A stretch of DNA of 42,721 nucleotides from a virus. Lineage: Duplodnaviria; Heunggongvirae; Uroviricota; Caudoviricetes. The stretch lies in the IMG/VR virus record IMGVR_UViG_2703718828_000007, one strand, 5' to 3'. Numbering within the stretch: the stretch's first letter is position 1; each line of letters begins with the position of its first letter. Shown in pieces: positions 2,835 to 42,721 of the stretch. Under the pieces are notes generated by a model. It searched no databases. It had not been told where the DNA came from and was given only the letters and a program-made list of their open reading frames with translations. Made by a program: the position numbers and the translations under genes.

Positions 2835-5800
2835 TTATGCCTGAGTACGCAGCGCTTCAAGGCGGCGCAGGTCGAAGTCGTTCAGTTCGTCGGTGTAGTC
2901 AGCAGTGATTGGCGCTGGCCATTCACCTGTGTCGAATCCGGTTGCGATATTGCGCATCGCTTTGCGGTACTCGAGCATACCCAGCTCCAGTAGTTCAGCG
3001 GATGCCTCGATGATGGCGATCCAGTGGTAGTTCTCGTCTTTGTTGACGAAAATCCAGAAGAACTGATCCAGCGCTGCGGTTTCGCAGTACATAGCCGCGC
3101 TCAGGTGATAATCACGTTCAATAATTTCCCGGTGTAGCCTGGCGCGCAGGCTTTCCTGCTTAACATTCCACATGCTGATGGTTTTCAGGTCTGCACCTAT
3201 ACGCACGCCATCCAGGTCGATCTCAAGGTCAGGGCGCACACGAACTTCCAAGCCCGTCTCCTCGTCAAAACCAAAGTAGCTCACCTCAACGGCTCGGCTA
3301 GGGTGGGTCAGCAGCATGCCGGCGGTCGGGTGTGCCAGAAGCGCTTTTTGAATATTCAGCGCGGTGCTCAGCTGCTGGCGGGTGACCAGCACTTTTCCTT
3401 CCGGGTTATCGCGCCAGGCATCCAGCAGTTCGTCGGCAAATACGGCATCTGGTTTGACTGCCTTTACGGCCTGGATCATGTCTGCTTTGGTACCGGACAC
3501 TTTCAGTGGTGCCGGTTTCTGTGCTTCCTGAGCCACAAGGTCAGGGTTGATGATTGCCAACTGCTCCAGCAGCGCGTCACGGCTGCCGCTGGTTTTAACC
3601 GGCGGCGGCAGGGTGGCGTTGTACTCTTTAATGCATGCCTTCATTGCCGTCGCCGTCTGCTTCTGGTCACCATCAATACGCTGGAAGTCAGCTGGCAGCG
3701 CCATATAGTTCTGTGCCGTTTCTTCCAGGTTAGCGCCAAGCGGAACCTGCGGCGGCAGGGTGGCGTTGTACTCTTCCAGTAACACCTTGATGTCGTCGGC
3801 AGACAGCAGCGCCGGCAGGCTGGCATTGTGCTCATCGATAAAGGCGCGCAGGGTCGCGGCCGTTGTGAATGCGCCTTCAGGGATCACCGGTTCAACGCTG
3901 AATTCTGCGTCCAGTAGTTCAGGCTGCAACGCCAGCGCATGCACCAAGTTGCCCATGTCCAGCACCGCTGAGCGCTCTTTGACGATGGTTTTCTCTACGT
4001 GGCGCGCATTGAAGTACATCAGCGAAACGCGCGCATCTTTCACCTGGGTTGAGCTGATGCCGTTGGCGGCGTGGTAAACCTCGTTTGGCAGCCCTTCATA
4101 GCGGCCTGGCTCGAAATAAGCGGGATAAACAACAGCTGGTTCGTCAGATTGCGCTTCTGGCTCGGTTTGTGCTGCAACTGGTTCGGTTTGGCTTACAGAA
4201 TCGCTATTTTTGGCGACAGAATCCGTATTCTGGTTTACATCGTCCTTCTGGCTGGTATCTGACTCTTCACCAGACTCCAGACTGCTTTCGCCTGGCTGTA
4301 CTTCATCACCAGCTTGTTTTTCATCACTGACAGTTTCTTGAACCTGCACATTGCTGGTGGTCTCCGTAGCCTTTTTCGTGCCATGAGTTGCTGAGTTCTG
4401 CAGCAAAGCCGTAACGTCGAATATTCCGTTGCCGACATTTTTAACCAGTTCTTGTTCGACTTTCTGCGGTTGTGCTGCCGCTTCCTCTGCGCGGCGGCGT
4501 GCTCCTTCTTCACGCACGCGTTGCAGGTTCTCTTCGTGAGTGCAGAAGGATTTGCGCGGAGACTCCTTACCTTCAGGTTGGGGAATTTCCTGTGCTGCGG
4601 GTTCAGCCTCATGCAACGGCAATAACTCGACCGCGGAATTGAACGCGGCTGTCATGGTCTGGTTAACAAATTCCAGGTGAGCGACAGGAGTTAAATGAAT
4701 ATTTTCCGGTGCGATACGTACCAGGTTAAAAATAGCCGTGCGGTTAACACCCAGAACGCCTGGCTGATTGCGCAGGATGTTGCTCCATGATTTCCATGGT
4801 TCTTCTTTTTTGGTCACGATTTCTTTAGCGCGACGAAGAATGCTGCCCGGGATCTCGAAGTGGTTGAAGTCCATAGGCAGAAGGGCACACGCAATCTCTA
4901 AATCGAGAGTGTCCAGTGTGTGGTGTGCGTCAGGTCCACGGTCAGTGACGTAACCGCCGTCGGCATTAGTGCCGGAATCAGTACGCTGCACACTACTGAT
5001 GCGATTACCGGCGGCCCATTCGCGAACGAGGATACCGCGGTCGATGTGATCTGTAGCGAACCACAATTTCAAAAACTGGATTAAGGTTGCGAGTTCAGGG
5101 ATTTTTCCATCGACAGGGAAGACTTTCTTAACGGCATTCACGACTTTATGAATATCGTGCTCAATGGCTTTTTTGAATGCTTCCACATTCTCAGCTGCCA
5201 GCAGCAGGTTCTGGACGTACGCGTCATCGGTGTCCATCTCAAGGCGGACAATCTCATTTTTCTGCCCTGCGTCGATGTGATAGAGATATTCACCATCACC
5301 GATGAACTGAGCCAGTACGCGCTGGCGGAATGGCAGGGTGGCAACAACGATCAGGTTCGGTTGCTGTGTCTGCTGGGATTGCTCTTCGGTATCGACTTCA
5401 CCATCAACGACGCCACCTTCTGCCCGGCCGTTCTCGTCGGTCTGGATACCGTCCTCAACAGTGAGATCTTGACCCGTTGTAACGTCAGCAGCGTTGCTGG
5501 TTTCAGTTTTGAGCAACTGCAACTTACCACTGCGCCAGTCTTCTACCAGTTGATTGCGGTCACCGGCATCGGTGTTCACCCAGTCAGACATGAATGCAGC
5601 GATCAATCTTGGTTCGTGCTCTTCGTCTGGTGTGAAAATGTCCTTAACCGCCCGAATCATTTTCCACTCAGCATTCAGGCTGAGTTTGGCGGTCGCGGGC
5701 ACATCGTTCCTTGCCACAAGCAGGCTATGGAGATATGTATTGCCTTCATCCAGTGACATTTCGCTGGCAGCCAACTGCTGCTCTTTAGTGACGTGGGTTT

Positions 5801-6536: not shown

Positions 6537-6887
6537 CTAGTGGCTGAGTCCATGCCCCAGACCGTTCAGATAAACTTCAACCAGCAAATCCTTGGTGTAA
6601 GTCATTTCTACGCCGCGATGCAGATACAAACGTCCGCGAGCGTTAGCTGATGCCGTCCAGGTTGAGTCTTTGTGTTTGACGAGCATCCCCGGCTGAACTG
6701 CGCCGCGGTTTACTGTCTGTGTACCGTAGTGCTGATGAACCATGATGTTCTCCAGTTTTTCTGAGTGAACTTCGCTGGTGATGCCGCGGCGCTGATCTTC
6801 ACGGTTGAGCGTTTTAACTCTGCAATTCACCACCGCGAAGCTCACTCTGTGCTTTGCCCTTGTCGCCAGGCTGGCGGAACGTTTCAA
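6537..6887 (-). CDS. Hypothetical protein, first gene of leftward early operon (possibly Kil-like; true start may be internal)
   Basis: 116-aa ORF directly downstream of PL-like promoter. Confidence 0.35.
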   Translation of the reverse strand: MKRSASLATRAKHRVSFAVVNCRVKTLNREDQRRGITSEVHSEKLENIMVHQHYGTQTVNRGAVQPGMLVKHKDSTWTASANARGRLYLHRGVEMTYTKDLLVEVYLNGLGHGLSH

Positions 6888-6986
6888 ACCTACTGCGCGT
6901 TAATCTCACCACCTCATTCCGGTCTTCGTATGCCCCGGACAGCTTCTTCGTGGGCGTCCTGCTTTGGTGGTTGTGTTGATGGAGTA

Positions 6987-7015
6987 ATTAAACACAATGT
7001 TTATTTACGTGTCAA
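6987..7015 (-). promoter_or_regulatory. PL-like leftward early promoter with overlapping operator half-sites
   Basis: Minus strand reads TTGACA, 17-nt spacer, TTTAAT; near-copy of the PR element at 9047-9075; palindromic AACA..TGTT motifs overlap. Confidence 0.45.
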
Positions 7016-7127
7016 CATAATGAGTGTTTTTATATAAACAAAAAGTTTAGTTGGTTGCGCTCGTTGGCACGAGTAGTATGTTTTGTGGTCTATTTTGTGG
7101 TTATAAAAAAATCGATGAGGGTGAGTT

Positions 7128-7334
7128 ATGGATCGTGACGAACTGGAAGAAGACCGCGCAGCGTTTATTGCGGGGGAGATTGGTGGCGCAGTTGTCAGTC
7201 TGATAGCTAACGGGATTGTGATCAGCCGCGATGCGATTGTGGATAGTCTAGAGGCTAAGCGCAGGGTAGTGGGAAACGTCATTCACAAGTGGGTATTGCG
7301 GGATGCGGCTGCTATGGTGAGAAAAGGGCAATAA
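7128..7334 (+). CDS. Hypothetical small protein (68 aa)
   Basis: ORF with GAGGGTGAG RBS; convergent with the repressor operon; followed by hairpin. Confidence 0.4.
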   Translation: MDRDELEEDRAAFIAGEIGGAVVSLIANGIVISRDAIVDSLEAKRRVVGNVIHKWVLRDAAAMVRKGQ

Positions 7335-39938: not shown

Positions 39939-40613
39939 ATGCTCCGAATCGGGCAAGTCGAAGCCACTGCAACGCAGGATGGCAAATATACTGATGGAAG
40001 TGTTGCTGGTGGTATTGCCGCAACGAGGCTGCGGGCAGCAGCGTTTAATGCCATGCAGGAAGAGTTAGCGCATATCGTAGAGTCAGCAGGATTGGCGCTC
40101 GACATTAACGATATGACTCAGGTTTTAAAAGCCATTCAAAAACTCACACTGAGCCGTGCAAACCCATTTGCCGATATCAAATCAGATGGTGCAGCGGCGA
40201 TTTCTACGGCTCTCACAAACCTTGGTTTGGGAGAAGCGGCAACGAGGAACGTCGGAACGGATACCGGGCAAGTACCAGATATGAGTAGTTTTACAACGGG
40301 GCACTCTGGAGCAGCAGACTGGCCGATTCCTAAATCTGGATGGAGTAAGGGGCCGGAAGGGGTAATTACACAATGGGGTATTTTCGGTTTCCCCGTTGGA
40401 CAGACAGGGACGAATGTTGTTTTCCCGCTACCTTTCCCCGCGCGGGTCGAATCAATTACACTGACAATGGCAGATATCCAGGAGTCTCTGCTTTCTCCAA
40501 CAACCATGCCTGCTTATGGAGTTAACTCAACTGGTACTTCAAGAACGGGTTTTACAGCCCGTATGTCAGGCGTCGGTGGGTTTAATCTTTGCTATATAGC
40601 GAAAGGGAGATAA
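39939..40613 (+). CDS. Tail fibre protein (constant N-terminus plus current variable C-terminus)
   Basis: 224 aa; contains hix/gix-like crossover site at codons 91-99; followed by tail fibre assembly gene. Confidence 0.65.
   Translation: MLRIGQVEATATQDGKYTDGSVAGGIAATRLRAAAFNAMQEELAHIVESAGLALDINDMTQVLKAIQKLTLSRANPFADIKSDGAAAISTALTNLGLGEAATRNVGTDTGQVPDMSSFTTGHSGAADWPIPKSGWSKGPEGVITQWGIFGFPVGQTGTNVVFPLPFPARVESITLTMADIQESLLSPTTMPAYGVNSTGTSRTGFTARMSGVGGFNLCYIAKGR
40210..40235. other. Left inversion crossover site (hix/gix-like)
   Basis: CTCTCACAAACC-TT-GGTTTGGGAGAA; reverse complement shares TTCTCCCAAACCAA with site at 42088-42113. Confidence 0.6.
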
Positions 40614-40617
40614 CAGA

Positions 40618-41061
40618 ATGAATAAAGTTAAAAGTGTTTACAGCCCGTCCGAAAATGCAATCTACAACGCAGCGCTATATGAAAGTTATATCAAGGAGGG
40701 GACATGGCCGCAGGATGGTATTGAAATCAGCGATGAGGATGCTGTCAGATTTAATGGGGGAAATAAGCCAACAGGAAAAATGCTGGGAATGGTTTCAGGG
40801 ACCCTTGCATGGGTTGATGAGCCGCCGCTTTCACCAGAACAGAAAATATCAGATGCAGAAAACATGAAAGCCACATTTCGTGCAAAAGCTGACAGCGAAA
40901 TATCCTGGCGTCAGGATGCTGTTGATGCTGGTATCGCAACTGATGAAGAAACTTCAACTCTCACCCAATGGAAGAAATACCGTGTGCTGCTGATGCGTGT
41001 TGATACGTCAACAGCACCCGATATTGAATGGCCTACGCCTCCGGCAGCTCAGGCCAGATGA
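40618..41061 (+). CDS. Tail fibre assembly protein (orientation A)
   Basis: 147 aa; C-terminal TAPDIEWPTPP motif typical of Tfa. Confidence 0.7.
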   Translation: MNKVKSVYSPSENAIYNAALYESYIKEGTWPQDGIEISDEDAVRFNGGNKPTGKMLGMVSGTLAWVDEPPLSPEQKISDAENMKATFRAKADSEISWRQDAVDAGIATDEETSTLTQWKKYRVLLMRVDTSTAPDIEWPTPPAAQAR

Positions 41062-41635
41062 CATCAGGCGCGGTGCTGGTATCTGTTGCCGTCACCGCGT
41101 CAATGTAATCCAGCACGGCGTTAAGTCGGGTTGTTTCTGCCGGCGTCAACTTCCGTCCGGCCTGTAATTTCAACTGAATCAGACTAATGGAAGCCATTGC
41201 AGTATCCATCAGCGACTGGCGCTGTGCTTCTGCTGCATCTACTGCGGCGCTATGCTGTGCCTCGGTATCCGTCACCCATTTCTCACCATCCCATTTATCG
41301 TATGGCGTTAACGGGGCTATAGTGGTTGTATTTTCGGGGTAATCACCCGGAGCTGTGATTTCTTTTGATTCTCCTGTTTTGGTGCTATAGACCGTTTCAC
41401 CGCGATGGTCTGGCACATATTCCCATGAGTTAAAATCTGCAGAACGGCAGATTGCATAACCAGCCTTATGTGTGCCAGGGGCATCTAAACAGGAACATGC
41501 CGGAATGCCGACACCAACGGCAAGATATTCATTTGAAGTGGAAATATATTCCCGAGTTTCACCATCATAGCTATAGACGGTAATATTCCCCGCCTTCGTG
41601 GCAATAAGCTCGCTATTTAATACAGCGTTATCCAT
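41033..41635 (-). CDS. Tail fibre assembly protein (orientation B)
   Basis: 200 aa; C-terminal TAPDVIWPELP; convergent with the other tfa. Confidence 0.7.
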   Translation of the reverse strand: MDNAVLNSELIATKAGNITVYSYDGETREYISTSNEYLAVGVGIPACSCLDAPGTHKAGYAICRSADFNSWEYVPDHRGETVYSTKTGESKEITAPGDYPENTTTIAPLTPYDKWDGEKWVTDTEAQHSAAVDAAEAQRQSLMDTAMASISLIQLKLQAGRKLTPAETTRLNAVLDYIDAVTATDTSTAPDVIWPELPEA

Positions 41636-42120
41636 TATGCAGCCCTCACGATAAAGTTAAATGCAATATTTCGCGCACGTGTTTCCGTTGATGTTCTGGC
41701 AACAAGTGATGCATCAAAATAATAATTCGCCTGTTTATATGTACCACCTATCGCAATTGATGCGAGATTTGGTGTCACTATTGAAGAGGTAAATGCGCCG
41801 ACAGTATTATTATTTGGCCCCGTGGTCATATCCCAAAAGCTACCTGTAATATTTTGCAGCGTATCGCTCTGAGCACTCAATAACGCTCGCCCACTGTCCA
41901 CTCCACGCCCATCATCCCAGCCACGAATAAACTCACCACGTAAATCAGGCAATTTATTTGTCGGGTAAGCCTTTGCCAGCTCCGGGTATTCTTCAGCAGA
42001 AAAAGCTGCACCATTGCATTTCAACCAGCCTGTCGGTGGTGTAGCTGAAGGCCACGGAACAGGCACACCAACCGGTAATGCAGAGCCTTCTCCCAAACCA
42101 ACCTTTTTTATAACCATCAA
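41635..42120 (-). CDS. Alternative tail fibre variable C-terminal segment (expressed after inversion)
   Basis: Minus ORF beginning inside right crossover site; encodes GLGE junction shared with the plus-strand fibre gene. Confidence 0.55.
   Translation of the reverse strand: MMVIKKVGLGEGSALPVGVPVPWPSATPPTGWLKCNGAAFSAEEYPELAKAYPTNKLPDLRGEFIRGWDDGRGVDSGRALLSAQSDTLQNITGSFWDMTTGPNNNTVGAFTSSIVTPNLASIAIGGTYKQANYYFDASLVARTSTETRARNIAFNFIVRAA
42088..42113. other. Right inversion crossover site (hix/gix-like, imperfect)
   Basis: TTCTCCCAAACC-AA-CCTTTTTTATAA. Confidence 0.55.
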
Positions 42121-42172
42121 AAATCTGGTGATGCTTCGCCGTTTCTCCTGTTTTCATAACAGGAGAAATCCC

Positions 42173-42721
42173 ATGATTTACGGTTATGCCCGAGTATCAA
42201 CAAACCACCAGGATACTGAATTGCAACTAACGGCGCTCAAGTCAGCGGGTTGTGAGAAAATTTTTGAAGAGCATGCCAGCGGGAGGAAATCGAATCGGCC
42301 GGTTCTAAAACGGCTGATCGCCACTATGCAGCCGGGGGATGAACTGGTGGTCTGGAAGCTGGACAGGATAGGCCGCAACGTTCTGCATGCGCTGTTGATG
42401 TTCCAGCAGTTACAGGAAAAGGGTATCAACTTCCGCAGTATTACCGATGGCGTGGATCTCAAAACAGCCAGCGGCCGCTATAACTTTCGTAACATCCTTT
42501 CCGCAGCACAATATGAATCTGATCTTAATAGCGAACGTACCTTAGCAGGGCTGGCCGTAGCCAGGGCAAAAGGGCGAGTTGGTGGTCGCAGGCCTAAGTT
42601 CACGGATGAGCAATGGCGGGAAATGGGGGAGCGGATGGCAACCGGTGAATCACGACAAAGCGTATCAAAAACGTATGGAGTAGGGCTCTCAACTCTGTAT
42701 AAAAAGTTTCCAGCTAGCTGA
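42173..42721 (+). CDS. DNA invertase, serine recombinase (Hin/Gin/Pin family)
   Basis: 182 aa from internal Met MIYGYARVST (catalytic Ser), C-terminal HTH; adjacent to invertible segment. Confidence 0.85.
   Translation: MIYGYARVSTNHQDTELQLTALKSAGCEKIFEEHASGRKSNRPVLKRLIATMQPGDELVVWKLDRIGRNVLHALLMFQQLQEKGINFRSITDGVDLKTASGRYNFRNILSAAQYESDLNSERTLAGLAVARAKGRVGGRRPKFTDEQWREMGERMATGESRQSVSKTYGVGLSTLYKKFPAS

Follow-up and report, generated by a model that had tools for sequence, protein, structure and literature searches.

The stretch of DNA analysed here (42,721 nucleotides at its full length, hereafter the window) is a complete-looking prophage whose head, tail and lysis-region genes form a full set. 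Its right end, immediately downstream of a contractile tail with a Mu-like baseplate, holds the following features:

39939–40613, + strand: tail-fibre gene S as it stands in this orientation (224 aa; Pfam PF21882 Gp53-like_C, E=5e-10)
40210–40235: left crossover site, pix-like, + strand reading CTCTCACAAACCTTGGTTTGGGAGAA; a near-perfect palindrome with its core at 40222–40223
40222–42101: invertible segment, 1880 bp from core to core, with two fibre tips, each with its own assembly chaperone
40618–41061, + strand: assembly chaperone for tip A, the next gene after that tip (147 aa; Pfam Caudo_TAP, E=1e-32)
41033–41635, − strand: assembly chaperone for tip B, TfaE-like (200 aa; Pfam Caudo_TAP, E=1e-32)
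41635–42099, − strand: tip B (Sv'), the alternative and at present silent fibre end, with a tail-collar domain (Pfam Collar PF07484, E=7e-16)
42088–42113: right crossover site, reading TTCTCCCAAACCAACCTTTTTTATAA
42127–42169, + strand: two adjacent hairpins in the invertase leader, from RNA folding
42173–42721, + strand: small serine DNA invertase (182 aa; Pfam Resolvase, E=4e-39, and HTH_7)
42194–42208, + strand: GTATCAACAAACCAC, first Fis-site position, a candidate by alignment and the only canonical Fis-enhancer element kept

Gene S consists of a constant N-terminal part, Sc, of about 95 aa up to the crossover at 40222/3, and a variable tip A formed by the gp53-like C-terminal domain. The 224-aa fibre is 33% identical to StfP of e14, with the NPF.DIKSDG...NLGLGE junction conserved. 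The presence of two convergent tail fibre assembly genes between the sites, proposed earlier from the DNA letters, is borne out by the Caudo_TAP domains of both 40618–41061 (+) and 41033–41635 (−); the 3' ends of these two genes share 29 bp. The chaperone gene for tip B has about 93% nucleotide identity to e14 tfaE, and the first 66 aa of tip B itself are identical to e14 StfE. Tip B has no start codon of its own and after inversion is the C-terminus of a 249-aa fibre. Of the minus-strand alternative fibre C-terminus previously proposed here, the Collar tip overlapping the right site stands, but its reading frame is unlikely truly to begin at the apparent start codon (TTG 42120 or ATG 42117) just outside the right site. 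When the segment was inverted in silico at the core, the in-frame 249-aa alternative fibre resulted; the crossover lies inside the fibre gene, both the 224-aa and the 249-aa products are open to the stop, and a Caudo_TAP gene lies downstream of each tip.

Inverted 26-bp sites with a common sequence had been placed at 40210–40235 and 42088–42113, and these coordinates are right, the inner 14 bases (TTCTCCCAAACCAA) being identical in both. Each site comprises two 12-bp, imperfectly symmetric half-sites round the same 2-bp core, as in the Gin, Cin and Pin systems; the central dinucleotide reads TT at 40222–3 and AA at 42100–1. Read from within the segment, the left site is TTCTCCCAAACC AA GGTTTGTGAGAG and the right site TTCTCCCAAACC AA CCTTTTTTATAA. 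The right site combines a perfect inner half with a degenerate outer one, which matches the symmetric sequence at 6/12, while the left site is symmetric at 10/12; between the right site and the reverse complement of the left, 20 of the 26 positions match. In a repeat search, no inverted repeat of the region was longer than this site pair (I1: 36 nt, 75%). With up to two mismatches allowed, the 14-mer occurs in the whole 42.7-kb window exactly twice, once per strand, the expectation being 0.37 copies, and two or more copies arose in 4 of 100 shuffles. A multi-site shufflon of the Min or R64 type was ruled out, there being just two sites in the window at this tolerance. The left site encodes ...TNLGLGE inside ORF 39939–40613 and the right site GLGEG at the 5' end of the minus-strand frame 41635–42099, in agreement with the sequence-only reading, which had assigned them respectively to the GLGE junction of the tail fibre gene and to the start of an alternative fibre C-terminus. 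Homology with relatives carrying a flipped or different cassette stops at 40236, and with flipped relatives it starts again at 42087. Dozens of related prophages have a site identical to the right site, placed 85 bp before the ATG of the invertase gene.

The serine invertase gene expected beside the segment is indeed found at 42173–42721. Its length of 182 aa, its Resolvase and HTH_7 domains and its catalytic residues are those of a small serine DNA invertase, and R7, S9, R42, D64, R65 and R68, as well as E121 and R122, are invariant in its clade, for which 55 distinct members were compared. Hin of Salmonella, the reference for Fis- and enhancer-activated inversion, is likewise a small serine recombinase with a C-terminal HTH and catalytic Ser, Arg and Asp. 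The window invertase is 55% identical to PinE, 52% to Gin and Cin and 37% to PinQ, and its lineage is separate from that of PinE, Gin and Cin. The invertase annotated as WP_000639140.1 at loci L002–L005 is 100% identical to it. NCBIfam has no model specific to the invertase or to any of the fibre parts; all that appeared there were sub-threshold hits to the XisF, Mpi and Ccr recombinases.

The first hairpin of the invertase leader is a terminator-like match, with a small GC stem (42127–42140) followed by T-rich sequence; the second has a 12-bp stem (42141–42152 / 42158–42169) that buries the Shine-Dalgarno sequence AGGAG (42161–42165). The fold has an energy of −28.8 kcal/mol (z = −5.65), matched in stability by none of 200 shuffles, and the stem hardly varies across the clade, where a single T-A to C-G double change occurs. 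These hairpins may well have a regulatory role. A promoter scan gave five matches where 4.5 are expected by chance, and no promoter is assigned to either the invertase or the minus-strand ORF.

Among the closest known counterparts is the P-segment and PinE of e14 in E. coli K-12, which has the same gene order and strands (ymfQ-stfP-tfaP-tfaE-stfE-pinE), an identical inner half-site and core (TTCTCCCAAACC AA), and a similarly short fibre whose constant part of about 95 aa ends in NLGLGE. The e14 P segment inverts experimentally at TTGGTTTGGGAGAAGG / CCTTCTCCCAAACCAA, and both of its orientations have been documented (PMC12529663, PMC4272514); the window sites match these repeats at 16/16 positions on the right and 15/16 on the left. 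The two elements differ in the length of the segment (1797 bp in e14, 1880 bp in the window), in the outer half of the right site (CGTTTATGAAAA in e14, CCTTTTTTATAA in the window) and in tip A, which is only distantly related to the tip of StfP. They differ also in setting: e14 is a 15-kb defective remnant inserted in icd, whereas the window is a 42.7-kb complete-looking prophage beside yciI/tonB and has a phi80/mEp237-type integrase and early region. The G segment of Mu with Gin and the C segment of P1 with Cin follow the same logic, with a constant N-terminus, two convergent C-termini with their own chaperones, and an invertase just outside the segment, and their sites are likewise of 26 bp with a 2-bp core; but those segments are of 3–4.2 kb, the fibres are much longer than in the window, and the gix half-site is different (TTATCCAAAACC TC). 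The same 1.88-kb segment, at 98% identity and with the same inner half-sites, is also found in the P2-like E. coli prophages L106 and L107. There the backbone differs: the fibre is P2 J-I-H with about 350 constant aa, and the invertase gene is placed between the fibre and sheath genes. That invertase, 54% identical to the window invertase, is a classical Pin-type enzyme.

Both orientations of the element were found in public sequences, the evidence being drawn from E. coli genomes, IMG/VR and a protein collection. The 249-aa fusion protein was found at 100% identity over its full length in an E. coli assembly (P0001), and it was only by a search with this predicted protein that the flipped twin was recovered. 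Over 6783/6783 bases, the E. coli locus L109 is identical to the window in its unflipped state, and L112 (E. coli assembly GCA_020693885.4) is identical to the window flipped in silico, again over 6783/6783 bases. Across 8.7 kb the sole difference between L109 and L112 is an exact inversion of the 1880-bp segment. Their contigs are of 170,365 and 170,366 bp and the locus lies at the same coordinates in both, which points to near-clonal isolates. An assembly artefact as the source of the flipped copy was ruled out: the 15-bp shared inverted identity is shorter than assembler k-mers, and therefore the orientation in each assembly is read-supported. The sequence-only reading had named the observation of one orientation alone as the outcome that would speak against a switch, and L109 and L112 between them show both. 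That the segment flips in this particular host is suggested by these two separate assemblies.

In a further twin pair, L002/L038, which has the window-type invertase and constant region, the flanks are 100% identical and the segment is inverted and 97.4% identical; the P2-like pair L106/L107 likewise presents both orientations of the segment. Four other loci (L004, L032, L033 and L037) are flipped relative to the window, with breakpoints at the sites. None of 80 IMG/VR loci showed the flipped state carrying both window cassettes, which were found together only in L036, in the same orientation. Exact S' was present on only two contigs, against 12 public contigs for the exact 224-aa S protein. 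No record in the phage collection spans the whole module, the best being Citrobacter phage Omnitron, which covers 40999–42616 only.

With Mu, P1 and e14, tail-fibre inversion became textbook knowledge. The favoured reading of the locus, to which we assign a probability of roughly 0.9, is that a working host-range switch of the Pin type lies at the right end of what looks like a complete prophage of a temperate E. coli myovirus. The invertase would bind the two inverted 26-bp sites, cut both at the central AA/TT dinucleotide and rotate the DNA halves, and religation would leave the 1880-bp segment flipped. The fibre promoter, the start codon and the first ~95 codons (Sc) lie outside the segment and would not be changed by the flip. 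In the present state Sc is fused to the gp53-like tip, with chaperone A next; in the flipped state it would be joined in frame to the tail-collar tip, followed by the TfaE-like chaperone B. Since Sc would stay fixed while the tip changes with orientation, the virions released by a lysogen population would each carry one or other of the two receptor-binding tips. Direct observations cover the anatomy, the in-frame fusion and both states of the exact DNA; that the flipping is done by the resident invertase, rather than by one acting in trans, and that the two tips recognise different receptors both appear likely. The analogy with Mu Gin, P1 Cin and e14 Pin drawn at the outset therefore holds, in that all the structural elements are present, the predicted product exists in nature and the sites are as in the inverting e14 P segment. 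The switch is an ordinary member of this kind and conceptually adds nothing to it. Its value lies rather in presenting the e14 P-segment, mostly studied in a dead remnant, in a complete-looking prophage as well, where host range would be measurable in both states, and in presenting a single 1.9-kb tip cassette traded among three phage backbones unrelated to one another, the module being bounded by the crossover sites.

Points that speak against this account are the poor outer half of the right site (6/12) and the identity of the active recombinase. It has been reported that PinQ, PinR and PinE all invert the e14 segment, PinQ being dominant, and that in K-12 inversion is mainly by invertases encoded elsewhere, namely PinQ/PinR (PMC12529663), so that activity need not lie with the resident gene. 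The switch in the window might accordingly be real and yet be flipped in trans by other Pin-family invertases (PinE, PinQ/PinR or the P2 type), with the resident gene weak, silent or otherwise tuned. The 1.88-kb segment and its inner half-sites do occur beside three invertases, namely the window type, pinE (L105) and the P2-like type (L106); the window invertase is an orphan in siphovirus mEp237, which has a single site; and the conserved hairpin hides the ribosome-binding site of the resident gene. Against this, the resident ORF is intact, none of its catalytic residues varies among the 55 distinct clade members, the right site is held at a constant 85 bp from the invertase ATG in dozens of prophages, and flipped twins occur among the loci with a window-type invertase. 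Flipping chiefly in trans is judged unlikely, though it is rated the highest of the alternatives considered here.

It could also be argued that the two orientations arose through rare homologous recombination or cassette replacement rather than programmed inversion, the element here being effectively locked. Cassette exchange clearly does occur at the sites, where homology between unrelated phage backbones starts and ends (L003, L006, L105, L106), and the excess of S over S' (12 contigs to two) is in keeping with a locked state. However, the 15-bp shared inverted identity is far below what efficient RecA-dependent inversion needs; L109 and L112 differ over 8.7 kb by inversion alone, unlike the result of replacement by a diverged cassette; and in e14 cultures inversion at identical sites occurs at rates that can be measured (PMC4272514, PMC12529663). 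Such an origin is therefore very improbable. A different kind of proposal concerns function: the main role in the lysogen might be host defence, the flip placing the gp53-like tip behind the minus-strand start beside the invertase (MMVIKKVGLGE...) so that free tip blocks the receptors of other phages. The e14 chimera StfE2, which has a gp53-like domain, is reported to block adsorption of T2 (PMC12529663) and offers an analogy; moreover, the minus-strand ORF runs 4–7 nt past the right site (ATG 42117, TTG 42120), and a weak promoter-like match points leftwards from 42200–42173. Yet no Shine-Dalgarno sequence precedes that start, promoter matches are at chance number (5 vs 4.5), and virion host range is the simpler role, since this prophage, unlike e14, has the full head, tail and lysis-region genes. 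Defence as the main role is rated a little below flipping in trans, and it is compatible with a host-range switch rather than exclusive of it.

Within the account of a host-range switch, it is the invertase, in residues and sequence elements linked to control by Fis, that departs from the textbook. In Hin, residues Q151, R154 and L155 contact Fis, and this patch is described as uniquely conserved in invertases together with the basic helix-B residues 47, 48 and 51 (PMC3798978). The window invertase has E150, E153 and R154 at the patch, positions that are variable among the 55 clade members, whereas Gin and Cin keep the Fis-contact residues; in helix-B, K46 and R47 (equivalent to Hin Lys47 and Arg48) are kept, and residue 50 (equivalent to Hin K51) is Ala and variable. 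Hin F105, M109 and L112 keep the dimer inactive until activation by Fis (PMC4513852), and Hin F105N is reported to be faster than wild type and Fis-independent. The corresponding helix-E residues in the window are N104, I108 and A111, and Hin H107 is replaced by Arg. The clade motif YNFRNI..A..Y, in place of the FFFHVM..L..M of Pin, Gin and Cin, is invariant apart from one Lys at position 104.

A Fis-dependent enhancer had also been anticipated in the 5' region of the invertase gene, and of its two expected Fis-site positions only the first is recognisable in the sequence. The 15-mer GTATCAACAAACCAC aligns with GTATCAACAAATGAC of pinE and gin, within the enhancer annotated at nt 19–90 of P1 cin. 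Fis binding is degenerate, and the G-N13-C rule used for its sites is unspecific. By this rule, 15-mers at nt 22–36 and 71–85 are common to pinE, gin and the P2-like gene, and the window keeps the first only, its nt 71–85 reading CAGCGGGTTGTGAGA; by the same simple rule Gin keeps both positions and Cin one. A shifted candidate at nt 60–74 was rejected, the stretch not being conserved in the clade. Synonymous sites were also examined for the mark of an enhancer within the invertase gene, and no clear signal emerged: diversity was 0.40 in codons 7–30 and 0.44 elsewhere in the gene, and it dipped at codons 8–13 only. Because the Fis-contact residues are lost, Asn stands at the Phe105 position and only one of the two Fis-site positions is kept, dependence of this invertase on Fis and an enhancer is, on sequence grounds, doubtful; with these hallmarks missing, its activity and control are not transferable from Hin or Gin.

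On the same grounds, namely Asn at the Hin Phe105 position and loss of the Fis-contact patch and of the second Fis-site position, it is tempting to suggest, though quite tentatively, a natural Pin-type invertase lineage that acts on the pix sites of PinE without the Fis/enhancer step and is perhaps throttled by the hairpin burying its ribosome-binding site. An uncharacterised invertase lineage that shares these sites and lacks the sequence hallmarks of Fis control is a natural test case for enhancer-free control of the direction and frequency of strand exchange. The lineage extends to at least 55 distinct sequences in Escherichia, Citrobacter, Kluyvera, Trabulsiella, Shimwellia, Morganella and Erwinia.

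The switch region holds two alternative fibre tips, each with its own chaperone, in an 1880-bp segment (40222-42101, core to core) bracketed by crossover sites, with an invertase gene alongside.

Features of the switch region (protein domains from Pfam)
39939-40613: fibre reading frame, gp53-like C-terminal domain (tip A, the present state)
40618-41061: plus strand, tail-fibre assembly protein
41033-41635: minus strand, tail-fibre assembly protein
41635-42099: minus strand, tail-collar domain frame (tip B)
42173-42721: invertase, 182 amino acids, Resolvase and HTH_7 domains
40210-40235: left crossover site, plus-strand sequence CTCTCACAAACCTTGGTTTGGGAGAA
42088-42113: right crossover site, TTCTCCCAAACCAACCTTTTTTATAA

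Both crossover sequences were found at the positions that the sequence-only reading had assigned to them. Read outward from the segment interior, each site opens with TTCTCCCAAACC AA; the inner half-site and 2-bp core are identical between the two, which agree overall at 20/26 positions and form the longest inverted repeat of the region in a repeat search. The shared 14-mer occurs twice in the 42.7-kb window, once on each strand, against 0.37 expected, and a search of the whole window allowing up to two mismatches gave no third copy.

Inversion of 40222-42101 in silico fuses the first ~95 fibre codons (the constant part, which lies outside the segment) in frame to the collar segment. The predicted 249-aa protein proved to be 100% identical over its full length to an E. 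coli protein, P0001, in a search of 5.8 billion proteins. Three sequences were compared: the contig encoding P0001 (L112, GCA_020693885.4), the window and a second E. coli contig (L109, GCA_022504325.1). L109 matches the window at 6783/6783 bases. L112 has 100% identical flanks around an exact inversion of the 1880-bp segment, free of mismatches, and the window flipped in silico matches it at 6783/6783 bases. The two contigs, of 170,365 and 170,366 bp with the same locus coordinates, very probably represent near-clonal isolates, or even one isolate. Confusion by the assembler is an unlikely source of the flipped copy, because the shared inverted identity extends over only 15 bp. Other public loci behave likewise. 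L002 and L038 share the same constant region, the same invertase and 100% identical 300-bp flanks, with the segment inverted at 97.4% identity; L004, L032, L033 and L037 change the strand on which they match the window at 40236 and again at 42087-42101; and the P2-like prophages L106 and L107 carry a segment 98% identical to that of the window in opposite orientations between identical flanks. Both orientations thus exist in nature, and the tail-fibre switch of Gin/Cin/Pin type that had been proposed from the sites and genes is real and was correctly interpreted. The switch is already present in public E. coli genomes, under generic annotation only.

The closest described counterpart is e14 of E. 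coli K-12, where the order and strands of the genes ymfQ, stfP, tfaP, tfaE, stfE and pinE are those of the window, and whose sites have the same inner half-site and core as those of the window. The e14 P segment inverts at TTGGTTTGGGAGAAGG and CCTTCTCCCAAACCAA, as established by sequencing and PCR (PMC12529663; also PMC4272514), and these repeats match those of the window at 15/16 and 16/16 positions. Over its first 66 residues the window's collar tip is identical to StfE. The constant part is homologous to the N-terminus of StfP, from which it has diverged, and shares its NLGLGE junction. The annotated segments of Mu and P1 work in the same manner. Promoter, start codon and constant part would remain fixed through inversion, which would choose the tip and chaperone placed downstream. 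Mu-type baseplate genes (gp44, 45, 46, 47/J and 48/YmfQ), a tail sheath gene and lambda-type terminase, portal and capsid genes lie upstream of the switch, and an integrase and a RecE-like exonuclease at the far left; because these are present, the window is judged a complete-looking temperate myovirus prophage. The switch is an e14-type P segment within an apparently intact phage. The early region is 97-98% identical to mEp237, HK225 and phi80, and yciI/tonB adjoin the element in E. coli genomes, yciI lying ~120 bp downstream of the invertase in E. coli relatives. The window starts exactly at the integrase ATG (integrase 1-1194) and stops exactly at the invertase stop codon (42719-42721); the attachment sites must therefore lie outside it.

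Homology between unrelated phage backbones begins and ends at the crossover sites, which therefore double as module boundaries in horizontal cassette exchange. L003 and L006 match the segment from 40214 on but not the constant part. The whole segment is present in L105, which has true pinE, and in P2-like L106; the 1.88-kb two-tip cassette (window 40211-42106) recurs at 92-98% identity in three unrelated backbones with three different invertases (L105, L106, L107). The same invertase as in the window is found beside attP in two siphoviruses, mEp237 (NC_019704.1, at 6656-7204), with a lone right-hand site, TTCTCCCAAACCAACCTTTCAAATAT, ~85 bp upstream of it, and HK225, with a solitary right-hand site, CCCTCCCAAACCAACCTTTTTTATAA. 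mEp237 lacks an invertible fibre segment and has an HK97-type fibre. These invertases look like orphans left by module exchange.

The invertase itself is identical to WP_000639140.1 (annotated at L002-L005). Its identity is only 52-55% to PinE, Gin, Cin and a P2-type invertase and 37% to PinQ; in the alignment the first four differ at far fewer positions among themselves than from it. Prophages of Citrobacter, Kluyvera, Trabulsiella, Shimwellia, Morganella and Erwinia carry relatives with as little as 62% identity. An alignment of 55 distinct sequences of this clade from L001-L103 shows no change at the catalytic residues. In Hin, Gln151, Arg154 and Leu155, termed uniquely conserved among invertases, touch Fis (PMC3798978); they are Glu, Glu and Arg in the window invertase and variable within the clade, and Ala stands in for the basic residue of Hin position 51. 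Helix-E residues Phe105, Met109 and Leu112 keep Hin inactive until Fis acts, and Hin F105N reportedly inverts faster than wild type with no requirement for Fis (PMC4513852). The window invertase has Asn, Ile and Ala here: its lineage has YNFRNI..A..Y, invariant in the 55 sequences bar one Lys at position 104, in place of the FFFHVM..L..M of Hin, Gin, Cin and Pin. On the DNA side, the P1 enhancer is annotated at cin nt 19-90, and G-N13-C 15-mers at nt 22-36 and 71-85 are common to pinE, gin and the P2-type gene. The window gene retains the first (GTATCAACAAACCAC, 42194-42208) and lacks the second. Taken as a whole, the enhancer region shows no reduction in synonymous-site diversity (0.40 vs 0.44), a dip being confined to codons 8-13. 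Since the hallmarks of Fis and enhancer control are not kept in the protein and only in part in the DNA, dependence on Fis and the enhancer is unproven and, judged by sequence, doubtful. This weakens the assignment to the Fis-dependent subclass, not the claim of Pin-like switching; the lineage might work without Fis.

Between the right site and the invertase ATG lie a small GC hairpin (42127-42140) and a 12-bp hairpin (42141-42169), the latter predicted to bury the Shine-Dalgarno sequence (leader fold energy z = -5.65 vs shuffles). Across the clade this stem hardly changes, even in sequences whose neighbouring spacer has diverged: a single T-A to C-G double change, a single wobble change and a single break are seen. 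At most a weak counterpart is present in e14 pinE and Mu gin. The pattern is consistent with throttled translation of the invertase, and would look the same for a palindromic protein-binding site.

The convergent chaperone genes overlap at their 3' ends by 29 bp (41033-41061), the same stretch encoding on opposite strands an APD(I/V).WP..P-like ending common to both proteins; the same overlap is also annotated in relatives, for example at 4272-4300 in L002. Just outside the right site lies a minus-strand start, TTG 42120 or ATG 42117 (MMVIKKVGLGE; 42100-42120), with neither a ribosome-binding site nor a promoter that convinces. After inversion it would lead a free gp53-like tip devoid of the constant part, comparable to StfE2, an e14 chimera reported to block adsorption of phage T2 (PMC12529663). 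In L001 (E. coli Z22-7, 3240-4313) the annotation marks the fibre gene as truncated directly after the left site, which is itself altered from C to T at one position (TTCTCTCAAACC), and unrelated sequence replaces the cassette of tip A and chaperone A; the copy may be decaying or locked. At L029, L035, L047, L055, L063, L066 and others (~4916), the right-site outer half CCTTTTTTATAA is kept and the inner half differs (TTCTTCCAAATG or TTCTCCCAATTG, for example), pointing to alternative variants of the half-site or to recombination products involving other sites.
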